IMG/VR virus record: IMGVR_UViG_2603880150_000003
DNA: 21,318 nt
Source: a virus
Lineage: Duplodnaviria > Heunggongvirae > Uroviricota > Caudoviricetes
Reading direction: 5' to 3' (one strand)
In this document: positions 774-21,318 of the stretch, piece by piece
How the letters are laid out: every line of letters begins with the position of its first letter
Position numbering within the stretch: the first letter of the stretch is position 1
Made by a program: the position numbers and the translations under genes
Notes under the pieces: generated by a model
Database searches by the model: none
What the model was told of the DNA's origin: nothing
The model's input: the letters and a program-made list of their open reading frames with translations, nothing else

Positions 774-1526
774 TCAGATTCCCTGGTGAGTAAGAATTTT
801 ACTTTCTGAACTCCTCTGAGAGTATTGACTTGGAGAAACACCAAAATAACGTCTAAATACATAAGTAAAGTATGAGACACTGGCATAACCACAGACCTTA
901 GCTACTTTACTAATAGGATAACAACGAGTGCTGAGTAAATATTCAGCCATTTGCATCCTCTCATCAAGTATGATCTTACTGAATGATACCCCCTCTTCTT
1001 TCAATTTCCTCTTTAGTAAACTTTCGCTGAGATATAATCTTGATGATATATCCTTAAGACGCCATGGTGCAGATAAATCCGTATGAATAATCGTTTTAAC
1101 TTTAGCCCCTGTGCTTTTCAAACATTCAAACAGAAATACTCCAAATTGTTTTTCAGAAGAAAATGCAGAGAGACATGTAAAAGCAATAGACTCATCAAAA
1201 ATTTCTATGTATTCAGCACAGTGATTAGCCCAACTAATTAATCCTTTAATTAAACTGAAGTCAGCAAAGTTTATTTTTAAATAAGATGGATATTCCCTAC
1301 AATCAGAAATATCCCTTAAGTTATTAGCTTTCAAATAGCGACTAATAAACTCAGCGCCAAAATCCGCCACTATCACTCTTTCAGGATATGTCAGGAAAAA
1401 ATCTCTAGAGCTAGAGTCGACAAGTACAGATGAACCTCTCTCCAGAAACACACTCTCTTTTCCGAAATAAACATCAAAGGACTCCAAAATCAATATAACT
1501 GAACATGTAGTTGCCATATCATCCAC
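774..1526 (-). CDS. AraC/XylS-family transcriptional regulator (AppY/YdeO/GadX-like), low-GC gene
   Basis: 250-aa ORF; C-terminal region (..WRLKDISSRLYLSESLLKRKLKEEGVSFSKIILDERMQMAEYLL..CGYASVSYFTYVFRRYFGVSPSQY) has the double HTH signature of AraC-family regulators and resembles YdeO/AppY. Markedly AT-rich relative to the prophage genes. Confidence 0.8.
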   Translation of the reverse strand: MDDMATTCSVILILESFDVYFGKESVFLERGSSVLVDSSSRDFFLTYPERVIVADFGAEFISRYLKANNLRDISDCREYPSYLKINFADFSLIKGLISWANHCAEYIEIFDESIAFTCLSAFSSEKQFGVFLFECLKSTGAKVKTIIHTDLSAPWRLKDISSRLYLSESLLKRKLKEEGVSFSKIILDERMQMAEYLLSTRCYPISKVAKVCGYASVSYFTYVFRRYFGVSPSQYSQRSSESKILTHQGI

Positions 1527-2101
1527 CCAACTTAACTGAAACCAGGATGAAGTATATGCATATAAAGTTCACTTTGCCAAACTTCAGTATAAAAAACCAC
1601 ATAAAAAATAGGGTGTGATAAAAAACACCGTAACAATAAAGCAAAGGATTATAAATTCCGTTACAGTTACAAATGATACTCAAGAAACAATTCCTTAGGA
1701 AAAACTTATTTACAGCCAATAAGTAAGACACTTATATGATATCAAGTTTTCATAAAACATAACTAGGCTAAATAGCTGCGCCTAATACCGCTACACTTTT
1801 GCCAGCCCATATTTGCCTCCGGGTATTGACCCCTTCTCTACGCAACTTCAGTTCCCACCACCAACTTTGCGGCAGCTTTGTAGGATCAATGTCTAAAAGA
1901 ATAATGGTGACCGATAAGAAAACGACTGAATAACTGCAAATTTTCGCTCAAAACCTTCCTGTCAGATCCATAGCGAATCAAGTGCTGAATGTCACAGTAT
2001 CAAACAGAAAACAGTGACGATCTAACTCTTCAAGAATATTCTACGATTGTTCTGTTTAGGAAAAGCAAGGCGGGAAGTCGGGAGATAAGTCATTGATAAA
2101 G

Positions 2102-2163
2102 TGGCGGAGAGAGGGGGATTTGAACCCCCGGTAGAGTTGCCCCTACTCCGGTTTTCGAGACCG
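2102..2163 (-). other. Orphan 62-nt 3' fragment of tRNA-Ser(CGA) (serU-type), likely att-site remnant
   Basis: Reverse complement CGGTCTCGAAAACCGGAGTAGGGGCAACTCTACCGGGGGTTCAAATCCCCCTCTCTCCGCCA matches the 3' 62 nt of E. coli tRNA-Ser(CGA) including the CCA end; the match stops abruptly inside the anticodon stem, so no complete tRNA is present. Confidence 0.8.
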
Positions 2164-2906
2164 ATGATACAGAGTCGAAAAATCAAAGAGTTAAAAATTT
2201 TTCTTGGAATAAATGTCTTAAAATCGTACACGAAAAATCAATGAATTACATAACATTAAAGAAGAATATTCCAAGCCTTCTTGATGCTACCACCTGTTTT
2301 CAGGTGTCATTCAGACGTGATTTGCCCCAGATTGGGAAAGCACGCTTTTTTCTCAGCTATCGTCCTCTTATTTTGCCGTTACATTTCTTTTTGCACTCTA
2401 ATGATTAATTTACAATAATAATATCGGTAATTATTGAGTAATAATAAATTGATTATTGCAAATGTAATTTAATTCCATCTTCGCGTTATATTCCAATCTT
2501 TAATCTCCGCATGGAACAAGTTGCATGCGTGACTATATTAAGACAACTTATAACCACCAAAACATTTGCTTTGCAAGCAAAAACAGTGACCATTGACTCT
2601 AAGAAAATTCCGATCTATTGTTAGGGTCATCAAAGTTACTTAACAGTATTCCGAAATGAAAATACAAAGCAAGCTAATTGTCTTATTAAACATTATCATT
2701 GCATTTATATTATTTGAGCTTTTAGCTCAAAAATTTGGTTTGAGTACATTATTTTAAAGCAAGATAAACAATATCGGGCACTCTAGTTTTTATAATTAAC
2801 AATTAAACGTCCATAAAATGTTATTTACTTTTCTTCGCTATTGTCATATCTTAATATAGTGGCTTACGCCACTCTACTTTCATCACATTTTGTACGTTTA
2901 TGTACT

Positions 2907-2939
2907 CGCCATGAAGCTCTTTCATGGCGATTTTTTATT
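2907..2939 (+). terminator. Candidate intrinsic terminator (9-bp stem cgccatgaa/ttcatggcg, loop gctct, then attttttatt)
   Basis: Perfect inverted repeat followed by a T-run on the + strand, inside AT-rich non-coding DNA between the tRNA fragment and tfa. Confidence 0.3.
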
Positions 2940-3022
2940 CTTAATCCAAGAACATACTCCTTACCTATAGCAAAATCACTTTTTGAACAAAAGAATAACG
3001 TATTTAGGTAATCATTACGAAT

Positions 3023-3604
3023 TTACCCTATAGGTGCTACTGGCCATTCAATATCCGGTGCAGTTGTTGTATTAACACGGTTCAGCAACACCCGATACTT
3101 CTTCCAGGCTTCCAGCAACGAGGTTTCTTCCTCCGTTGCAATTTCCAGATCTGCAGCATCCTGAAGCGGCGCAATATGCTCACTGGCTACCTGCATCAGG
3201 CTGTTTTTTGTTTCTTCCGCCTCCCGGATCCGGAACAGTTTTTCTGCTTCTGCATCTTTCACCCAGGCTGTGCCGTTCCACTTCTGATATTCCCCTCCCG
3301 GCGACAACCAGGTAACATTTTCCGGTAACGGACCGAGTTCAGAAATAAATAACGCGTCGCCGGAAGCCACGTCATAAACCGTTTTACCCCGATGGTCTTC
3401 AACGAGATGCCACGATGCCTCATCACTGTTGAAAACAGCCACAAAGCCAGCAGGAATATCTGGTGGTGCAATATCGGTACTGTTTGCTGGCAGACCTGTA
3501 TGAGGCGGAATATATGCGTCACCTTCACCAATAAATTCATTAGTTCCGGCCAGCAGATTATAAATTTTTATGGTCCGTGGTTGTTCACTCATTCTGAATG
3601 CCAT
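3023..3604 (-). CDS. tfa: Tail fiber assembly protein Tfa (lambda Tfa-like)
   Basis: 193-aa translation [51 protein letters not shown].. is near-identical to lambda Tfa as recalled; start overlaps the stf stop by 1 nt. Confidence 0.9.
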
Positions 3605-6600
3605 TATGCAAGCCTCACAATATAGTTAAATGCGATGTTTTTGACGGTGTTTTCCGCGTTACCCGCAGCGTTAACGGTGATGGTATGTCCATGTGAGCCA
3701 ATCGCAACGGAGTGCGTATGAGCACCAATACCGACAGTATGTGCATGTGCGCCTGCGCTTGCAGCAGTGCCGGACAGCGAGTGGGTATGAGCACCATCTG
3801 ATGATGTCTTCCCTGCATTACGAGTCTGGCCACTACCGCTTGTTGTGCTCATAATCCCCGCGCTTAGATTTGAAATCGCAGTATAACCATTAGGAAAAAT
3901 GCTCGTGTTCGTGCCACCAAATGCACCGGAACTCTTGTGTTGGTGCGCACCGGCACTATTTGCTGTCCCGCTAATACTATGGGTATGTGCACCAGTGTTA
4001 TTCGTGGATTTGGTTCCGTAATCAAACGACGATGTGGTTTTCGTCCCCAAATCCGTACTGGATGCGCTGGCGCTGTGGGTGTGCGATTTAATGCCGTCCT
4101 GTTCCTGAGACAATACGGCACGACCACTGGCGGGCTTGCCCTTAATCGTCCAGCCACGCATATCAGGGATCACGCCTGACGGATAAGCAACTGCAAGTTT
4201 CGGGTATGCAGATTTGTCAAAAGTCTGCCCCTGCATCAGGGCATAGCCAGACGGAACGGTATCTGATGGCCACGGGATTGGTGCGCCGACTGGATAAAAC
4301 TCTGCAGGAGGATGAGCCGAGGTGTAAAGCTGCGCCCACGGCGACCAGTTTGCGTCGATCGTATCCCGTCGTGAACGAATAAATGCCGGAGCATGAGCAC
4401 CGCTTGTACCACTCCAGCCGATGAGTAACTCACCTTCGCCAACGGCTGTCATCCCTTTCAGGTGAATGATATTTCCATACGCTGTTGGATATCCGTTGTT
4501 ATACACCTCGTATAACTCAAGACCTGTTGCCCCCTGCGTATTGTCTGTCAGCGCGGTTACCCGACCTTTTGAAGCCAGATTAACTGATGATACTGCTGTT
4601 CCACCTGACGGTAATGCCCCAATCTCTGATGCCGTTGGCTTATTTCTGGAGTTATAGTCCCTTCGCCAGCCAGGTGAATAATCTGTTCCGTGATTAATAT
4701 AGGTAAACTGGGCGTTAGTTGTTCCACCACCAGTGGAGGTGGTCGGTGTGGTAATGCGGATCGTCATCGCTGACTTTATCCCCATTACTTCAATGACAGC
4801 TCCGGCGAGATGAATATTACCGCAGCCAGTATCAGTAATGATTTTATTATTGCCATAAGACCAGGAACCCTTGCACATCCAGTATGGATGGTTAAATGCT
4901 CCCTGAGAATCCAGCCACTCGATAAACTGTGCAGTCGTCCAGTTTCCTGTTGTTGTGCTTACTGACCCACCGAAGGCACGGCAGGCACCAATATTTTTCG
5001 TAAAGGTGTCTTTGCCAGGGATATCCGCACCGTTCTGATCTTTCTGCAGACGTTTCTCAGCATTGTCATTGGCTGCTTTTACTGCCTTTGGCGTTGCCGC
5101 CAGCGTTTCAGACGTGCTGTTGGTCGCGCTGCTTAGCTGGATTATCCCTTTCTGTGCTGTCGTTGCATCCTGTGCGGTGTATTTCCCGTTAGCCAGGTCA
5201 TACGCGGCCTTAACGGCTTTTGGTGTTGCCGCCAGTGACTCGGAAGTGCTGTTAGTCGCACTACTGAGCTGTACTATCCCCTTTTTCGTCGTGCTCGCAT
5301 CCTCAAGCGCCACGGCGGATGCAATATCCTCTGCCCGTTTTGCCGCTGTCTCAGCGCGCGTTGCTGCAGATTCCGCCGTACTTTTGCTCTGAGCTGCTGC
5401 CGTCGCACTACCAGCAGCCTCTGTCGCCTTCGTGGATGCCGTCGTGGCGCTGCCCTTCGCTGCTGACGCCTGTCTGGTCGCCTCATCTTTTGAAGCAGAC
5501 GCCGATGATGCCGATGACGCCGCCGAACTGGCGGACGATGCCGCTGCCGTTTTTGAGGATTCTGCACGGGTTTCCGAGGCTTTCGCGTTCGTTTCGGATG
5601 TCATCGCTGCGGATGCAGACCTCGCTGCTGCGCTGGCCTGTTCAGCGGCTTCGCCAGCCTTCGTTGTGGCTGTTGAAGCGGATGATGCGGCGCTTTCGGC
5701 CGATTTTCCGGCTGCGGTGGCACTGACTGAGGCCTGCCCGGCACTTGTTGACGCGGCACTGGCAGACGACGCAGCCGCTGTTTTTGAGCCTGCCGCAGCT
5801 GAGGCGCTCTGTCCCGCTGCCGTCTCAGAAGACCTGGCGTTCGTCTCGGACGTTTTTGCCGCCTTCGCGGAATTTCCTGCCGCCGTTGCCGAGGAAGCGG
5901 CACTACTGGCGCTTGATGATGCGTTCGTTTCTGATGATTTTGCCGCTTCTTTTGAGGCCGCCGCATCCCGGGCCGAGGTCGCAGCTTCTGATGCCTTCGT
6001 GGTCGCGGTGGATGCAGATGTGGCTGCTGATTGTTGTGACGCTGAAGCATTCGTTTCTGACGTTTTCGCCGCACCGGCACTGGTGGCCGCCGCGCTTTTT
6101 GAGGACTCTGCAGCGGCAGCACTTTTTGATGCTTCAGTGGCCTTTGTTGATGCCGTTCCTGCGCTGGAAGACGCTGACTGAGCCGACGACGCGGCCTGTC
6201 CGGCTGACGTGCTGGCTGCGCGTGCTGAGTCCGCAGCATCAGCCGCATGGGTTGCCGCCTCACGGGCTGATGTGCTGGCATCACTGGCTGACTTCTTCGC
6301 GGCTGCCGTGTTCTGTGCCACCGCGGACGCGTTACGCGCCACCTCTTCCACCATCAGTTCAAAACGGCGCAGTGCCTCAGGACGGGCATCATCCTCCGTC
6401 ATGGCACCGAGAAAATCATTCAGCGTACCGGGTTGAGAATCTTCATACACGGTGATGGTCCCGGCATGTGACGGCGGGAATCCTTCCACCAACAGAATAA
6501 CGCTGTACTGACCGTACTCCACATCCATGCTGTAACGCCCGGCTTCATCCGGATTCTCTGAGCCCACCGTGTTCACCACCACCGTGGTGCTGTTACGTCT

Positions 6601-9834: not shown

Positions 9835-10128
9835 ATGAAAAAAATGTTGTTTTCTGCCGCTCTGGCAATGCTTATTACAGGATGTGCTCAACAGACGTTT
9901 ACTGTTGGAAACAAACCGACAGCAGTAACACCAAAGGAAACCATCACCCATCATTTCTTCGTTTCGGGAATTGGACAGGAGAAAACTGTTGATGCAGCCA
10001 AAATTTGTGGCGGCGCAGAAAATGTTGTTAAAACAGAAACCCAGCAAACATTCGTAAATGGATTTCTCGGTTTTATTACTTTAGGCATTTATACTCCGCT
10101 GGAAGCGCGTGTGTATTGCTCACAATAA
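9835..10128 (+). CDS. bor: Bor lipoprotein (serum-resistance moron)
   Basis: MKKMLFSAALAMLITGCAQQTFTVGNKPTAVTPKETITHHFFVSGIGQEKTVDAAKICGGAENVVKTETQQTFVNGFLGFITLGIYTPLEARVYCSQ matches lambda Bor; lipobox LITGC; antisense to the lysis genes as in lambda. Confidence 0.85.
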   Translation: MKKMLFSAALAMLITGCAQQTFTVGNKPTAVTPKETITHHFFVSGIGQEKTVDAAKICGGAENVVKTETQQTFVNGFLGFITLGIYTPLEARVYCSQ

Positions 10129-11330: not shown

Positions 11331-11453
11331 AACCCCACCTCGCAGACAAAGCGGGTGTAAATTGAGGGAATACTACGAAACGTAACAGACTCGGAGTCAG
11401 TGAATAACTCAGGTATTGGGTTATCAGCTAATATCGAGACTCAAAAAATGGAA

Positions 11454-11475: not shown

Positions 11476-11902
11476 AAGCTGTGTGACGAAGTAACCACTC
11501 TTAACAGCATAACCAATTTTTTACGTACGTAAACCACTAAATGATATTTGCGAGAATGCTACCGAGTATTGAAAACACCACTACAAATACATAAGAAAAT
11601 CTCAACAAATAACCAACAAATAATTTCCAGTGTTATTTTTAGCCGGTTTAAATTGAACCTTCAAATTATAGAGCACTTATAAATAACAGCCGTTAATATA
11701 AATTGGCTAACAGATTTATTTTTATTCAGCCAAGAGCCATGAATAGGATTCGATAGAAAAAAGTTCAGATAAAAATAGAGATCTACTTCACAAATCAAAC
11801 GAGAAACCAAAACTTACATCTTGAAATAATCACATTGATTAGATGAATATTTATCGCGCAGTGACATCATTTTTTAATAATAGTTCAAAAAAAGGGCTCA
11901 CG

Positions 11903-13000
11903 ATGAAAAAATTAACAGTGGCAATTTCTGCTGTAGCTGCATCAGTACTGATGGCGATGTCTGCTCAGGCAGCTGAAATTTATAATAAAGACAGTAACAA
12001 GCTGGATCTGTACGGGAAAGTTAATGCTAAGCACTACTTCTCCTCTAATGATGCAGATGATGGTGATACTACTTATGCCCGTCTTGGCTTCAAAGGTGAA
12101 ACCCAAATCAACGATCAACTGACTGGTTTCGGTCAGTGGGAATATGAATTCAAAGGCAACCGCGCTGAATCTCAAGGCTCCTCCAAAGACAAAACCCGTC
12201 TTGCATTTGCAGGCCTGAAATTCGGTGACTACGGCTCCATCGATTACGGCCGTAACTACGGTGTAGCATACGACATCGGCGCGTGGACTGACGTCCTGCC
12301 AGAATTCGGTGGTGACACTTGGACTCAAACCGACGTGTTCATGACTCAACGTGCAACTGGTGTTGCAACCTATCGTAACAACGACTTCTTTGGTCTGGTT
12401 GATGGTCTGAACTTTGCTGCTCAGTACCAAGGCAAAAACGATCGTAGCGATTTCGATAACTACACTGAAGGTAACGGTGATGGCTTCGGTTTCTCTGCTA
12501 CCTATGAATACGAAGGATTCGGTATCGGTGCAACTTATGCGAAATCTGATCGTACCGACACTCAAGTTAATGCAGGGAAAATTCTTCCTGAAGTATTTGC
12601 TTCCGGTAAAAATGCAGAAGTTTGGGCCGCAGGTCTGAAATATGACGCTAACAACATTTACCTGGCCACTACCTATTCTGAAACCCAGAATATGACTGTA
12701 TTTGCTGATCACTTCGTTGCTAATAAAGCCCAAAACTTCGAAGCTGTTGCACAATATCAGTTCGATTTCGGTCTGCGTCCGTCCGTTGCTTACCTGCAAT
12801 CTAAAGGTAAGGATCTTGGAGTATGGGGCGATCAGGACTTAGTCAAATATGTTGATGTAGGTGCAACCTATTACTTCAACAAAAATATGTCTACTTTCGT
12901 TGATTACAAAATCAACCTGCTTGACAAAAATGACTTCACTAAAGCACTCAGTGTAAGCACTGATGACATCGTTGCTGTAGGTCTGGTTTACCAGTTCTAA
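11903..13000 (+). CDS. nmpC: Outer membrane porin NmpC/OmpD/Lc (OmpC family), apparently intact
   Basis: [23 protein letters not shown] signal peptide, then [23 protein letters not shown].. and C-terminal ..VAVGLVYQF, the general-porin signature; SD aaaggg upstream. The listed ORF starts 20 codons upstream but 11903 fits the signal peptide. Convergent with Q, as for nmpC in DLP12. Confidence 0.9.
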
Positions 13001-13016
13001 TCTGATTACGAAAAAG

Positions 13017-13050
13017 ATATGTTGCGGGAGGCTTTGCCTCCCCAACATAT
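13017..13050 (-). terminator. Strong hairpin just after the nmpC stop; on the - strand followed by aucuuuuucg (candidate late-strand terminator, possibly tR')
   Basis: About 15-bp stem (atatgttgcgggaggc / gcctccccaacatat, one bulge) with ttt loop; rc of 13008-13016 gives a U-run after the stem on the - strand. Confidence 0.4.
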
Positions 13051-13137
13051 AAGTGGCTCCCTCAAGCCACTTCCTTTAGGAGCACAACCTTGCTTCTAAC
13101 TATATAAACCTTCTGTTATATATTACCCTTTATTTTT

Positions 13138-13162
13138 GGGGGCGTTGCAACGCCCCATTTTT
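13138..13162 (+). terminator. Intrinsic terminator for nmpC
   Basis: Perfect palindrome gggggcgttgcaacgcccc followed by atttttaataattttt on the + strand. Confidence 0.55.
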
Positions 13163-13189
13163 AATAATTTTTAGTAAACAACTGGCATA

Positions 13190-13573
13190 TTAATTAGAGT
13201 TATTAACAACGATATCCATCTCTAACCGGATATCTAATGCCATTAACATCCCTTCAATTATGCCCTCAGCCTTCTGTAACCTTTTCCCGATATAACCATC
13301 AGAGCAGCAATGCTTACCTGCCAGTGACATGAATGTCATACCGACTACATAATAATCTACTAATAAATCGTGCAAATCGCTGTTGTTCTTTTTCAGACGG
13401 GCCATGCACCCGCAAATAATCATCGCGTCATCGTCACAACATTGCGGGCGAGATTTTACTTTTGAAGTAATTAATCCCTTAAAACCGGCGGCAATGGACG
13501 ACCAGGTCACATCTTCATGATTATTAGCCGCCCACGCTCCCCAACGCTCAAGAACCATCTGAATATCACGCAT
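13190..13573 (-). CDS. Late-gene antiterminator Q (QuuD / phage-82-type Q-like), 127 aa
   Basis: [62 protein letters not shown].. with Cys-rich motif; sits between rusA and the lysis genes; SD GGAG precedes the MRDIQ start (the listed ORF begins at an upstream TTG). Confidence 0.8.
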
Positions 13574-14885: not shown

Positions 14886-15229
14886 GCCGCCCTCCTGACG
14901 CCCTGCCCGATCGCCATCAATGCCGCTTTGGATACGGTAGTAAACATCCGTCGAGGACTGATGAACAGTCGCCAAATCAGCAGCATGGAGCCTTTGCTGT
15001 TTTCCTTCTTCTCCAACCCTGTCGATGGTTCGATAAAATTAATCCGTCCATCAGTGATAATGCGAACTTCGTCGACACTCTCCAGAGCCTTGCTGAACCA
15101 TCCGACTGACATATCCTCTGGCACAAGCATAACTACCGTCTGTCGCTGTTGTATGCACTGCTCAGCGGCTTTTTCCACCCACGGCCTGATATTGCTGTAC
15201 GGTGGGTTATTCCAGATTGCACCGTGGCT
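14882..15229 (-). pseudogene. Phage Dam-type N6-adenine DNA methyltransferase, 3' fragment (contains the NPPY motif)
   Basis: Minus-strand translation from 15229: [71 protein letters not shown]..; catalytic NPPY motif present, no N-terminal domain; an in-frame stop lies immediately upstream (15230-15232). Confidence 0.7.
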
Positions 15230-15230
15230 T

Positions 15231-15542
15231 TACGAGTATTGCCGGAAGCGAGGCCTGTATCCGGATGCGGAGTCTTATCCGTGGAAATCAAACGCGCACT
15301 ACTGGCTGGTTACCAACCTGTATCAGAACATGCGGGCCAATGCGCTTACTGATGCGGAATTACGGCGCAAGGCTGCCGATGAACTGACCTGTATGACAGC
15401 GCGAATTAACCGTGGTGAGACGATACCTGAACCAGTAAAACAACTTCCTGTTATGGGCGGTAGACCTCTAAATCGTGCACAGGCTCTGGCGAAGATCGCA
15501 GAAATTAAAGCTAAGTTCGGACTGAAAGGAGCAAGTGTATGA
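15231..15542 (+). pseudogene. P: Replication protein P, C-terminal ~104 codons only
   Basis: YEYCRKRGLYPDAESYPWKSNAHYWLVTNLYQNMRANALTDAELRRKAADELTCMTARINRGETIPEPVKQLPVMGGRPLNRAQALAKIAEIKAKFGLKGASV matches the lambda P C-terminus; the preceding 160 codons of the listed ORF are antisense to ninE/dam and unrelated to P. Confidence 0.8.
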
Positions 15543-18056: not shown

Positions 18057-18338
18057 ATGAGTATCAATGAGTTAGAGTCTGAGCAAAAAGATTGGGCGTT
18101 ATCAATGTTGTGCAGATCCGGTGTCTTGTCTCCATGCAGACATCACGAAGGTGTTTATGTAGATGAAGGTATAGATATAGAGTCGGCATACAAATATTCC
18201 ATGAAGGTTTATAAGTCTAATGAAGACAAATCCCCATTCTGCAATGTGCGAGAAATGACTGATACCGTGCAAAATTATTATCACGAGTACGGTGGAAACG
18301 ATACTTGCCCTCTCTGTACAAAACATATAGATGATTAA
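18057..18338 (+). CDS. ea8.5: Ea8.5
   Basis: 93-aa ORF MSINELESEQKDWALSMLCRSGVLSPCRHHEGVYVDEG.. between ea22 and xis, same size and position as lambda ea8.5. Confidence 0.75.
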   Translation: MSINELESEQKDWALSMLCRSGVLSPCRHHEGVYVDEGIDIESAYKYSMKVYKSNEDKSPFCNVREMTDTVQNYYHEYGGNDTCPLCTKHIDD

Positions 18339-18413
18339 ACCCAATATTACATAACAATCCTCGCACTCGCGGGGATTTATTTTATCTGAACTCGCTACGG
18401 CGGGTTTTGTTTT

Positions 18414-18566
18414 ATGGAGATGATAAATGCACTTCCGAGTCACAGGAGAATGGAATGGAGAGCCATTCAACAGAGTTATCGAAGCGGAGAACATCAACGA
18501 CTGCTACGACCACTGGATGATATGGGCGCAGATAGCACATGCAGACGTAACCAATATTCGAATTGA
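18414..18566 (+). CDS. Small ORF (50 aa) between ea8.5 and xis
   Basis: ATG at 18414, stop at 18564-18566; translation MEMINALPSHRRMEWRAIQQSYRSGEHQRLLRPLDDMGADSTCRRNQYSN. Lambda has an unnamed small ORF at this position, but coding status here is uncertain. Confidence 0.3.
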   Translation: MEMINALPSHRRMEWRAIQQSYRSGEHQRLLRPLDDMGADSTCRRNQYSN

Positions 18567-18585
18567 AGAACTGAAAGAACACCAA

Positions 18586-18606
18586 GCCGCCTGATGGCGG
18601 TTTTTT
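18586..18606 (+). terminator. Candidate intrinsic terminator upstream of xis
   Basis: Short GC stem (ccgcc/ggcgg, loop tgat) followed by tttttt. Confidence 0.4.
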
Positions 18607-18633
18607 CTTGCGTGTAATTGCGGAGACTTTGCG

Positions 18634-18852
18634 ATGTACTTGACACTTCAGGAGTGGAACGCACGCCAGCGACGCCCAAGAAGCCTTGAAACAGTTCGTC
18701 GATGGGTACGCGAGTGCAGGATATTCCCTCCTCCGGTTAAGGATGGAAGAGAGTATCTGTTCCACGAATCAGCGGTAAAGGTTGACTTAAATCGACCAGT
18801 AACAGGTAGCCTTTTGAAGAGGATCAGAAATGGGAAGAAGGCGAAGTCATGA
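18634..18852 (+). CDS. xis: Excisionase Xis
   Basis: MYLTLQEWNARQRRPRSLETVRRWVRECRIFPPPVKDGREYLFHESAVKVDLNRPVTGSLLKRIRNGKKAKS matches lambda Xis (72 aa); overlaps the int start. Confidence 0.9.
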   Translation: MYLTLQEWNARQRRPRSLETVRRWVRECRIFPPPVKDGREYLFHESAVKVDLNRPVTGSLLKRIRNGKKAKS

Positions 18853-19900
18853 GCGCCGGGATTTACCCCCTAACCTTTATATAAGAAACAATGGATATTA
18901 CTGCTACAGGGACCCAAGGACGGGTAAAGAGTTTGGATTAGGCCGAGACAGGCGAATCGCAATCACTGAAGCTATACAGGCCAACATTGAGTTATTTTCA
19001 GGACACAAACACAAGCCTCTGACAGCGAGAATCAACAGTGATAATTCCGTTACGTTACATTCATGGCTTGATCGCTACGAAAAAATCCTGGCCAGCAGAG
19101 GAATCAAGCAGAAGACACTCATAAATTACATGAGCAAAATTAAAGCAATAAGGAGGGGTCTGCCTGATGCTCCACTTGAAGACATCACCACAAAAGAAAT
19201 TGCGGCAATGCTCAATGGATACATAGACGAGGGCAAGGCGGCATCAGCCAAGTTAATCAGATCAACACTGAGCGATGCATTCCGAGAGGCTATAGCTGAA
19301 GGCCATATAACAACAAACCCGGTCGCAGCCACTCGCGCTGCAAAATCAGAGGTAAGGAGATCAAGACTTACGGCTGACGAATACCTGAAAATTTATCAAG
19401 CAGCAGAATCATCACCATGTTGGCTTAGACTTGCAATGGAACTGGCTGTTGTTACCGGGCAGCGAGTTGGTGATTTATGCGAAATGAAGTGGTCTGATAT
19501 CGTAGATGGATATCTTTATGTCGAGCAAAGCAAAACAGGCGTAAAAATTGCCATCCCAACAACATTGCATGTTGATGCTCTCGGGATATCAATGAAGGAA
19601 ACACTTGATAAATGCAAAAAGATTCTTGGCGGAGAAACCATAATTGCATCTACTCGTCGTGAACCGCTTTCATCCGGCACAGTATCAAGGTATTTTATGC
19701 GCGCACGAAAAGCATCAGGTCTCTCCTTCGAAGGGGATCCGCCAACCTTTCACGAGTTGCGCAGTTTGTCTGCAAGACTCTATGAGAAGCAGATAAGCGA
19801 TAAATTTGCTCAACATCTTCTCGGGCATAAGTCGGACACCATGGCATCACAGTATCGTGATGACAGAGGCAGGGAGTGGGACAAAATTGAAATCAAATAA
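18830..19900 (+). CDS. int: Integrase Int (lambda-type tyrosine recombinase)
   Basis: 356 aa MGRRRSHERRDLPPNLYIRNNGYYCYRDPRTGKEFGLGRDRRIAITEAIQANIELFSGHKHKPLTARINSDNSVTLHSWLDRYEKILASRGIKQKTL.. near-identical to lambda Int; 3' end points at the att core. Confidence 0.95.
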   Translation: MGRRRSHERRDLPPNLYIRNNGYYCYRDPRTGKEFGLGRDRRIAITEAIQANIELFSGHKHKPLTARINSDNSVTLHSWLDRYEKILASRGIKQKTLINYMSKIKAIRRGLPDAPLEDITTKEIAAMLNGYIDEGKAASAKLIRSTLSDAFREAIAEGHITTNPVAATRAAKSEVRRSRLTADEYLKIYQAAESSPCWLRLAMELAVVTGQRVGDLCEMKWSDIVDGYLYVEQSKTGVKIAIPTTLHVDALGISMKETLDKCKKILGGETIIASTRREPLSSGTVSRYFMRARKASGLSFEGDPPTFHELRSLSARLYEKQISDKFAQHLLGHKSDTMASQYRDDRGREWDKIEIK

Positions 19901-19954
19901 TGATTTTATTTTGACTGATAGTGACCTGTTCGTTGCAACAAATTGATAAGCAAT

Positions 19955-19987
19955 GCTTTTTTATAATGCCAACTTAGTATAAAAAAG
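19955..19987. other. Prophage-host att junction (int-proximal); 15-bp lambda core GCTTTTTTATACTAA on the - strand at 19973-19987
   Basis: ..gttgcaacaaattgataagcaatgcttttttataatgccaacttagtataaaaaagc matches the lambda P arm and core as recalled; the following aggc.. matches the bacterial arm (CTGCTTTTTTATACTAA.. in reverse complement). Confidence 0.8.
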
Positions 19988-20034
19988 CAGGCTTCAACGG
20001 ATTCATTTTTCTATTTCATAGCCCGGAGCAACCT

Positions 20035-21318
20035 GTGAACACATTTTCAGTTTCCCGTCTGGCGCTGGCATTGGCTTTTGGCGTGACGCTGACCGCCTGT
20101 AGCTCAACCCCGCCCGATCAACGTCCTTCTGATCAAACCGCGCCTGGTACCTCTTCTCGCCCGATTCTGTCGGCAAAAGAAGCGCAGAATTTCGATGCTC
20201 AACACTATTTTGCATCCCTGACACCAGGTGCTGCAGCGTGGAATCCTTCCCCGATTACCCTGCCTGCGCAACCTGACTTTGTTGTCGGCCCGGCGGGCAC
20301 TCAAGGTGTAACGCATACCACGATTCAGGCGGCGGTAGATGCGGCAATTATCAAGCGTACCAACAAGCGCCAGTATATTGCCGTGATGCCTGGTGAGTAT
20401 CAGGGAACGGTATATGTCCCTGCCGCTCCGGGTGGAATTACTCTGTACGGTACAGGTGAAAAACCGATTGATGTGAAGATTGGGCTTTCCCTTGATGGTG
20501 GCATGAGCCCTGCCGACTGGCGTCACGACGTCAACCCGCGCGGCAAATATATGCCAGGTAAACCAGCGTGGTATATGTACGATAGCTGCCAGAGCAAACG
20601 CAGCGACAGTATCGGTGTTCTCTGCTCTGCGGTCTTCTGGTCACAAAACAATGGCCTGCAACTGCAAAATCTGACCATCGAAAACACGCTGGGCGATAGC
20701 GTAGATGCAGGTAACCATCCGGCGGTGGCACTGCGTACTGATGGTGACCAGGTACAGATTAACAACGTTAACATTCTCGGTCGTCAGAACACCTTCTTTG
20801 TCACCAACAGCGGTGTGCAGAACCGTCTGGAAACAAATCGTCAGCCGCGTACGCTGGTGACCAACAGCTACATTGAAGGGGATGTGGATATCGTTTCTGG
20901 TCGCGGCGCAGTGGTGTTCGATAACACCGAATTCCGCGTGGTGAACTCACGTACTCAGCAAGAAGCGTATGTGTTTGCACCGGCTACGCTGTCCAACATT
21001 TACTACGGTTTCCTCGCCGTAAACAGCCGTTTCAATGCTTTCGGTGATGGTGTGGCGCAACTGGGCCGCTCGCTGGATGTTGATGCCAATACCAACGGTC
21101 AGGTGGTGATCCGTGATAGCGCCATCAACGAAGGTTTTAACACGGCTAAACCGTGGGCCGATGCGGTGATCTCTAATCGTCCGTTTGCGGGTAATACCGG
21201 CAGCGTAGATGATAACGACGAAATACAGCGCAATCTGAATGACACTAACTACAACCGCATGTGGGAATACAATAACCGCGGCGTGGGTAGTAAAGTGGTT
21301 GCAGAGGCGAAGAAGTAA
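20035..21318 (+). CDS. ybhC: YbhC, outer-membrane lipoprotein of the pectinesterase/acyl-CoA thioesterase family (host gene next to attB-lambda)
   Basis: 427 aa, lipoprotein signal MNTFSVSRLALALAFGVTLTAC, translation matches E. coli YbhC as recalled; higher-GC chromosomal-type sequence. Confidence 0.9.
   Translation: MNTFSVSRLALALAFGVTLTACSSTPPDQRPSDQTAPGTSSRPILSAKEAQNFDAQHYFASLTPGAAAWNPSPITLPAQPDFVVGPAGTQGVTHTTIQAAVDAAIIKRTNKRQYIAVMPGEYQGTVYVPAAPGGITLYGTGEKPIDVKIGLSLDGGMSPADWRHDVNPRGKYMPGKPAWYMYDSCQSKRSDSIGVLCSAVFWSQNNGLQLQNLTIENTLGDSVDAGNHPAVALRTDGDQVQINNVNILGRQNTFFVTNSGVQNRLETNRQPRTLVTNSYIEGDVDIVSGRGAVVFDNTEFRVVNSRTQQEAYVFAPATLSNIYYGFLAVNSRFNAFGDGVAQLGRSLDVDANTNGQVVIRDSAINEGFNTAKPWADAVISNRPFAGNTGSVDDNDEIQRNLNDTNYNRMWEYNNRGVGSKVVAEAKK

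Follow-up and report, generated by a model that had tools for sequence, protein, structure and literature searches.

An intact nmpC porin gene and an IpeX-like RNA region in a probable reversed conversion module between Q and the late promoter homologue of a DLP12-like prophage remnant

The elements considered here, namely the nmpC/lc porin gene, DLP12 (qsr'), IpeX, essDp and the PR' of Stx phages, have all been described previously, and their arrangement is already known. In DLP12 of Escherichia coli K-12, whose porin gene has a counterpart in the lc gene of phage PA-2, the genes are ordered rusA–ylcG–quuD–(nmpC reversed)–essD–rrrD–rzpD–borD, with nmpC of K-12 interrupted by IS5 after codon 346. 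The K-12 porin promoter, PnmpC, is active, belongs to the sigma70 class and is contained in the 199 bp preceding the start codon; its activity is lost on deletion of −199 to −1 and its transcription start site (TSS) has been confirmed by 5'RACE (PMC11677980). IpeX has been described as a 167-nt DLP12 small RNA that is made from the porin promoter within the porin transcript and then processed, and that represses OmpC and OmpF. In K-12, IS5 lies between this promoter and ipeX.

Two further systems bear on the late transcription of such a region. In Stx phages such as 933W and Sp5, the stop codon of Q is overlapped by a cassette comprising a promoter, an initial transcribed sequence and a hairpin. 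The mapped tR' of the StxS unit is a second terminator located 258 nt downstream, and cargo in the sense orientation (tRNAs and stx) follows tR'. Differential RNA-seq in Sakai puts the PR' start near Q and Term-seq puts tR' 258 nt downstream of it. Phage lambda is ordered Q–PR'–6S RNA–tR'–S and has a constitutive late promoter; it resembles the region described below in possessing a Q antiterminator, a late promoter near a terminator and lysis genes at the start of the late unit, but its Q belongs to a family unrelated to the one found here (PF06530), and here a moron separates Q from the candidate promoter, the PR' homologue.

We analysed a stretch of 21 318 nt from a virus of the class Caudoviricetes (IMG/VR record IMGVR_UViG_2603880150_000003), hereafter the window. 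Its late region has the DLP12 order, with rusA, ylcG and Q on the − strand followed by the porin gene (+), S, a SAR lysozyme gene, Rz/Rz1 and bor/iss (+), and both intergenic regions flanking the porin gene are near-identical to those of DLP12. The porin gene (+) therefore sits reversed between Q and S (both −) and converges on Q, as a preliminary description of this DNA had stated. Q shares 78–81 % identity with its counterparts in 933W and other Stx phages, and its relationship to the Q21 structures 6P18 and 6JNX is a distant one. The bor/iss lipoprotein gene (9835–10128, +) is a second reverse-oriented moron, located just past Rz/Rz1 and, unlike the porin gene, inside the late transcription unit. 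The prophage itself is a decayed DLP12-like remnant, in which J and lom are truncated, nohD stands beside a J fragment without head or tail-shaft genes, a replication-P fragment (15228–15542) runs opposite to the nin region and 18313–20819 contains two IS3-family elements. Because of this decay, some of the elements described below may be silent relics. A full-length match to Rfam IS009 (3063–3261, −; 227 bits against a gathering threshold of 117) lies inside the prophage tail fibre assembly gene. E. coli AH21 is identical to the window over the 2.35-kb Q–porin–S stretch that was compared, and the gene table was taken from the AH21 record.

The features of the region are given below by position in the window. 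Gene integrity, hairpins, homologies, the limits of the module and the positions matched by published primers were observed directly, and the promoters and terminators are predicted sites as regards activity in this strain.

11330–11115, − strand: S21/EssD-type holin S, first of the late genes (PF04971 match, annotated essD)
11475–11446, − strand: tR'-like hairpin (11475–11454) followed by UUUUUCCAUUUUUU (terminator scan, folding)
11534–11499, − strand: PR'-type late promoter homologue (alignment to PR' as annotated in 933W, SC370 and Ss-VASD)
11535–13212, no strand assigned: exchangeable nmpC module, from the 3' tail of Q through IpeX and the porin gene to the porin promoter region (homology boundaries)
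11704–11902, + strand: region with the porin's own predicted sigma70 promoter PnmpC and 5'UTR (K-12 deletion data, near-identical sequence)
11886–11854, − strand: sigma-E-like promoter matching the published DLP12 essDp (primer map, conserved motif)
11903–13000, + strand: general porin gene of nmpC/Lc type, intact and coding for 365 aa including a signal peptide (ORF, Porin_1, K-12 comparison)
13001–13167, + strand: IpeX-like sRNA region, the nmpC 3'UTR from stop codon to intrinsic terminator (K-12 match, folding, length fit)
13017–13050, no strand assigned: bulged 15-bp hairpin, stem-loop 1 of IpeX on the + strand (folding, phage conservation)
13139–13162, + strand: predicted intrinsic terminator of nmpC/IpeX, stem 13139–13156 plus AUUUUU (terminator scan, folding)
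13573–13190, − strand: antiterminator Q, QuuD type (PF06530, E=4e-53)

The porin gene is intact, as had been proposed. Its ORF stays open for 365 codons and ends in ...GLVYQF, with a single stop at the end and no frameshift or internal stop. The 365-aa product matches Porin_1 (Pfam) over profile positions 1–337 of 337 (E=2.6e-156) and is a general porin of the OmpC/OmpF/NmpC family, labelled simply 'porin' by RefSeq in an identical genome; an N-terminal signal peptide and an aromatic C-terminal residue were recognized by eye from the translation, without a signal-peptide predictor. Comparison with K-12 NmpC rebuilt without IS5 gave 363 of 365 identical residues (99.5 %), and the IS5 disruption of the K-12 copy, also part of the preliminary description, was seen in K-12 nmpC and is lacking from the window copy. 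Amongst the 2534 complete genomes with the porin 3' junction, the K-12 IS5 site was uninterrupted in 2210, so that an intact porin gene is the norm and K-12 the exception. Upstream of the gene, 11704–11902 is near-identical to the K-12 PnmpC region. The LF82 prophage Perceval has the same layout as the window, and in the LF82 lysogen its porin is expressed about 10-fold over local background. An antisense ORF of 285 aa (11942–12799, −) also lies inside the porin gene, and its equivalent in phage 434B bears the annotation 'hypothetical protein'; rather than being a gene, the ORF probably results from the codon composition of the porin.

The gap between the Q and porin genes (13001–13189) measures 189 bp, in keeping with the earlier estimate of about 190 bp, and alignment with the K-12 DLP12 nmpC–quuD gap revealed four substitutions. 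Both hairpins previously reported in it are present and exceed shuffled sequence in stability by a wide margin. The first (13017–13050) is a 15-bp stem that contains a single bulge and closes a 3-nt loop; it folds at about −23 kcal/mol on both strands (−22.7 on the − strand; z about −6) and is directly followed on the − strand, the late strand, by CUUUUUCG with its five U, as had been noted; a consensus terminator scan left it unflagged because of the bulge. The second (13139–13156) has 7 bp, six of them G–C, followed by AUUUUU on the + strand, and was reported by the scan as a + strand terminator, agreeing with the nmpC-strand terminator placed at 13138–13162 in the preliminary description. 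It is not a − strand terminator, since CAAAAAUAAAG comes next on that strand. Three more hairpins (13051–13072, 13076–13099 and 13101–13122) occupy the space between, and the 167 nt of 13001–13167 (+) form a row of five hairpins with a folding energy of −62.4 kcal/mol (z=−7.9).

This region corresponds in place to IpeX of DLP12 and PA-2, lying directly 3' of nmpC on the same strand and closing with an intrinsic terminator at about 167 nt; measured from the porin stop codon, the terminator U-run is complete after 162–167 nt. Its putative ends, 13001 and 13167, are placed by the length fit to IpeX (Castillo-Keller et al. 2006), and both these ends and a function of IpeX in this strain are predictions from sequence. 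In contrast to K-12, the porin gene of the window is uninterrupted, and IpeX RNA should therefore come from PnmpC within the porin transcript. In the porin-carrying phages compared, the IpeX region shows stronger conservation than the porin gene (about 95–97 % DNA identity versus 89.7–98.6 % protein identity). Hairpin 13017–13050 is kept in these phages with changes that preserve the stem, although the U-run is down to four in two of them, and terminator 13139–13162 keeps its stem with a variable loop. A search for covariation in the IpeX hairpins returned only a few stem-preserving changes amongst sequences about 95–97 % alike, which are too similar for covariation to prove the structure. Rfam, at gathering and E-value thresholds, gave no family for the gap or for the PR' cassette described below; hits to Trp_leader (E=0.38) and SNORD123 were at chance level and were discarded. 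The K-12 3'-end mapping supplements of PMC7815308 held no entries for ipeX, quuD, essD or nmpC.

The preliminary description had further held that late transcripts heading for S must cross about 1.1 kb of nmpC antisense, and that the gap packs both the nmpC terminator and a tR'-like terminator of the late operon. Both ideas followed from assuming a lambda-like layout with PR' directly after Q. When the DNA downstream of Stx2-phage Q was compared with the whole window, one significant block besides Q itself was found, the 83 nt after the Stx-phage Q stop corresponding to window positions 11534–11452 (−). The cassette so defined is about 85 nt long and lies between the 5' end of the porin gene and S, which starts 120 nt further on, and the GenBank records of 933W, SC370 and Ss-VASD mark the block as PR' plus putative tR'. 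Identity is 77 % over 83 nt to 933W and 83–86 % to phages PhiR55_1 and 569R4. The predicted promoter comprises a −35 element TTTACG (11533–11528) and a −10 element TATGCT (11511–11506) with a predicted TSS at about 11502–11499, and the initial transcribed sequence TAAGAGTGGTTAC (11503–11491) is invariant in all phages compared and present in one copy in the window. Counting 258 nt back from the mapped tR' of Sakai leads to a point 7–10 nt past a TTTACG-16-TATCAT promoter at the Q stop, and this promoter aligns with 11533–11506. The same 258-nt TSS-to-tR' distance ruled out a 'putative −35/−10' annotated further downstream in the Stx2 II record as the real PR'.

The PR' homologue is followed by hairpin 11475–11454, the only terminator-like site between the late promoter candidates and S. 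Its stem is kept and its loops vary amongst phages with different cargo, and the equivalent site in record Y10775 is annotated as a putative tR'. In Sakai the equivalent first hairpin lets some transcripts pass and the mapped tR' is a second hairpin; the window differs from the Stx phages in having no second terminator before S. The termination efficiency of 11475–11454 is uncertain because the Sakai hairpin is leaky. The first hairpin after PR' in the Stx phages has a perfect seven-U run (1980–2005, and about 670–695, in two records), and since the published full-length StxS transcript runs to the second terminator at +258, this hairpin must be leaky or serve another purpose, such as Q loading. 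In several porin-carrying phages the tR'-like hairpin and S are 16–22 nt further apart (at window position about 11370–11380, −), by a sequence that is missing from the window and from K-12.

A consensus scan reported no sigma70 promoter on the late strand from Q to S; the PR' homologue, a modest 8/12 match, falls below its threshold, and a relaxed scan was needed. The relaxed scan also returned two weak 8/12 matches in AT-rich sequence on the − strand of the gap. Together with the Q–PR' order of lambda and the strong hairpin 13017–13050 with five U on the late strand, these matches are what can be said for a PR' directly after Q in the 189-bp gap, with antisense read-through of the porin gene and 13017–13050 as tR'. 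We consider such an arrangement very improbable. The PR' cassette found in the closest relatives of this Q has its sole window homologue at 11534–11446 (−) and none in the gap, which moves with the porin gene, phages with the same Q carrying other cargo instead. In some phages the hairpin U-run is only four, and the published essDp lies on the S side. In K-12, moreover, insertion of a strong terminator into the nmpC/quuD gap changed nothing, and the authors of that work conclude that transcripts arriving from the direction of quuD do not cross the locus (PMC11677980). The gap contains a late-strand hairpin with a U-run but, beyond the two weak matches, shows no late promoter directly after Q, and a hairpin with a U-run alone does not make a tR'. 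The late promoter is thus probably on the S side of the porin gene, outside the Q–porin gap, a placement drawn from homology and the literature. With a late promoter there, no tR' would be needed beside Q. Of the two terminators formerly assigned to the gap, that of nmpC (13139–13162) stands, whilst 13017–13050 is better read as stem-loop 1 of IpeX.

The S side holds two candidate late promoters, at 11854 and about 11500. The first follows from the DLP12 lysis promoter region, which was amplified as '−121 to +650' (PMC7918800, citing Rueggeberg 2015). The 5' end of primer Pdlp12Fw maps to window position 11975 and is called −121, which would place the essDp +1 at 11854; primer Pdlp12Rv has no match in the window within three mismatches, but its core matches K-12 essD, which is enough to fix the amplicon. 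Position 11854 is six bases past a conserved GAACTA-16-TCACT motif resembling a sigma-E promoter (−35 GAACTA at 11886–11881, −10 TCACT at 11864–11860), and, on the strand opposite to the porin gene, precedes the start codon of the latter by 49 nt. If essDp were the working Q-dependent late promoter, divergent from nmpC and antisense to its 5'UTR, the homologue at about 11500 would be a Q-loading/terminator site or vestigial. The primer map and adjoining motif favour this, as does the reported control of the DLP12 lysis cassette by Q and RpoE (published work cited in PMC7918800), yet we judge it unlikely. The cassette shared with Stx phages that have a mapped PR' sits at about 11500, and phages with other cargo retain this cassette and lose the 11854 region. 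A Q of this kind would also be expected to load at a sigma70-dependent pause, as the Q proteins of lambda, 82 and 21 do.

Comparison of the flanking sequences placed the porin gene in a discrete unit. Homology with PhiR55_1, 1H12 and 933W ends at about 13213–13241, in the last Q codons, and homology with related phages picks up again at 11534. In the window and 36 phage records the intervening slot comprises IpeX, the porin gene and the porin promoter. In PhiR55_1 it comprises one reverse-strand gene of unknown family and in 569R4 two reverse-strand genes; in 1H12 a reverse-strand lipocalin gene directly follows Q, and a homologue of the PR' cassette was not detected in the 1H12 stretch examined. 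In Stx phages the slot is empty, PR' overlapping the Q stop. That related phages fill the same space differently indicates that a module of about 11535–13212 has been exchanged as a unit. The spacing from Q to the cassette is 0 kb for Stx phages as against 0.6 kb (PhiR55_1), 1.5 kb (569R4) and 1.7 kb (the window), and the displacement in the latter three means that adjacency of cassette and Q is not universal in the family. The cassette stays constant while flanks and cargo vary amongst phages. Whereas Stx phages carry sense cargo after tR', the window carries reversed cargo upstream of the cassette, 1.7 kb from Q. This displacement of the PR' cassette from Q by reversed cargo, and the recurrence of the slot in related phages suggested by these comparisons, are the mildly new aspects of the locus.

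As a whole, the region is in our judgement likely to be best explained by a self-contained lysogenic-conversion module (11535–13212), which sits reversed in a slot for cargo that separates Q from the late promoter. The module would comprise PnmpC (sigma70), nmpC, a structured 167-nt 3'UTR constituting IpeX and one intrinsic terminator (13139–13162), and in a lysogen a single transcript would yield both porin and IpeX. With OmpC and OmpF lowered by IpeX while NmpC is made, the outcome could be a porin swap. The Q-dependent late unit would start past the module, at the PR'-type promoter 11533–11506 and possibly also at the sigma-E-type essDp (11854), followed by the terminator hairpin 11475–11454 and then S. 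Q would act in trans at the PR' site beyond the module, and late transcription would therefore not need to cross the porin coding sequence.

Hairpin 13017–13050, IpeX stem-loop 1 in this model, may on the opposite strand also stop transcripts leaving Q. A two-stranded role, as an IpeX element (+) and as the terminator of the Q (early-right) transcript (−), is compatible with the conversion module and is a tentative proposal that we rate at somewhat below even chance. Its − strand stability and the CUUUUUCG that follows speak for it, as does the lack of a − strand U-run at the other gap hairpin, 13139–13156, and the authors of the K-12 work deduce that transcription coming from quuD is blocked by intrinsic terminators (PMC11677980); set against these are a U-run that is short and not strictly conserved and the failure of the consensus scan to flag the bulged site. 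Were the hairpin to terminate Q, the 3' ends of the Q and IpeX/nmpC mRNAs would overlap by about 150 nt. A more speculative extension, to which we attach a low probability, is that the Q/PR' junction of phages with a QuuD- or Q933-type Q is a recombination slot for reversed conversion genes insulated from late transcription, that Q mRNA ends at 13050–13017 and overlaps IpeX, and that porin/IpeX transcription damps leaky Q mRNA by antisense and so stabilizes lysogeny. Antisense damping of Q by paQ of lambda would be the analogue.

For annotation, the hairpins beside Q would mark a known porin and sRNA conversion module and not a late-operon control region. In strains with an intact gene, which are the majority, production of NmpC and IpeX from one promoter should reshape the porin content of the outer membrane, with a bearing on phage receptor availability and antibiotic permeability. 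Cargo upstream of PR', such as nmpC, would predict expression in the lysogen, and cargo downstream, such as stx, expression upon induction; this rule may be useful for reading prophage morons and is an extension of known biology rather than a discovery.

The arrangement is widespread (about 40 % of complete E. coli genomes), the 2.35-kb Q–porin–S stretch being present at a coverage of at least 80 % in 2395 of 5426 such genomes and in 36 phage records. Phage 434B (OL657227) carries the K-12 qsr' substitution at 1490–5081, including the IS5-disrupted nmpC, and evidently obtained its Q–nmpC–S block by recombination with DLP12; the block is thus able to provide late control and lysis functions to a phage that is viable.
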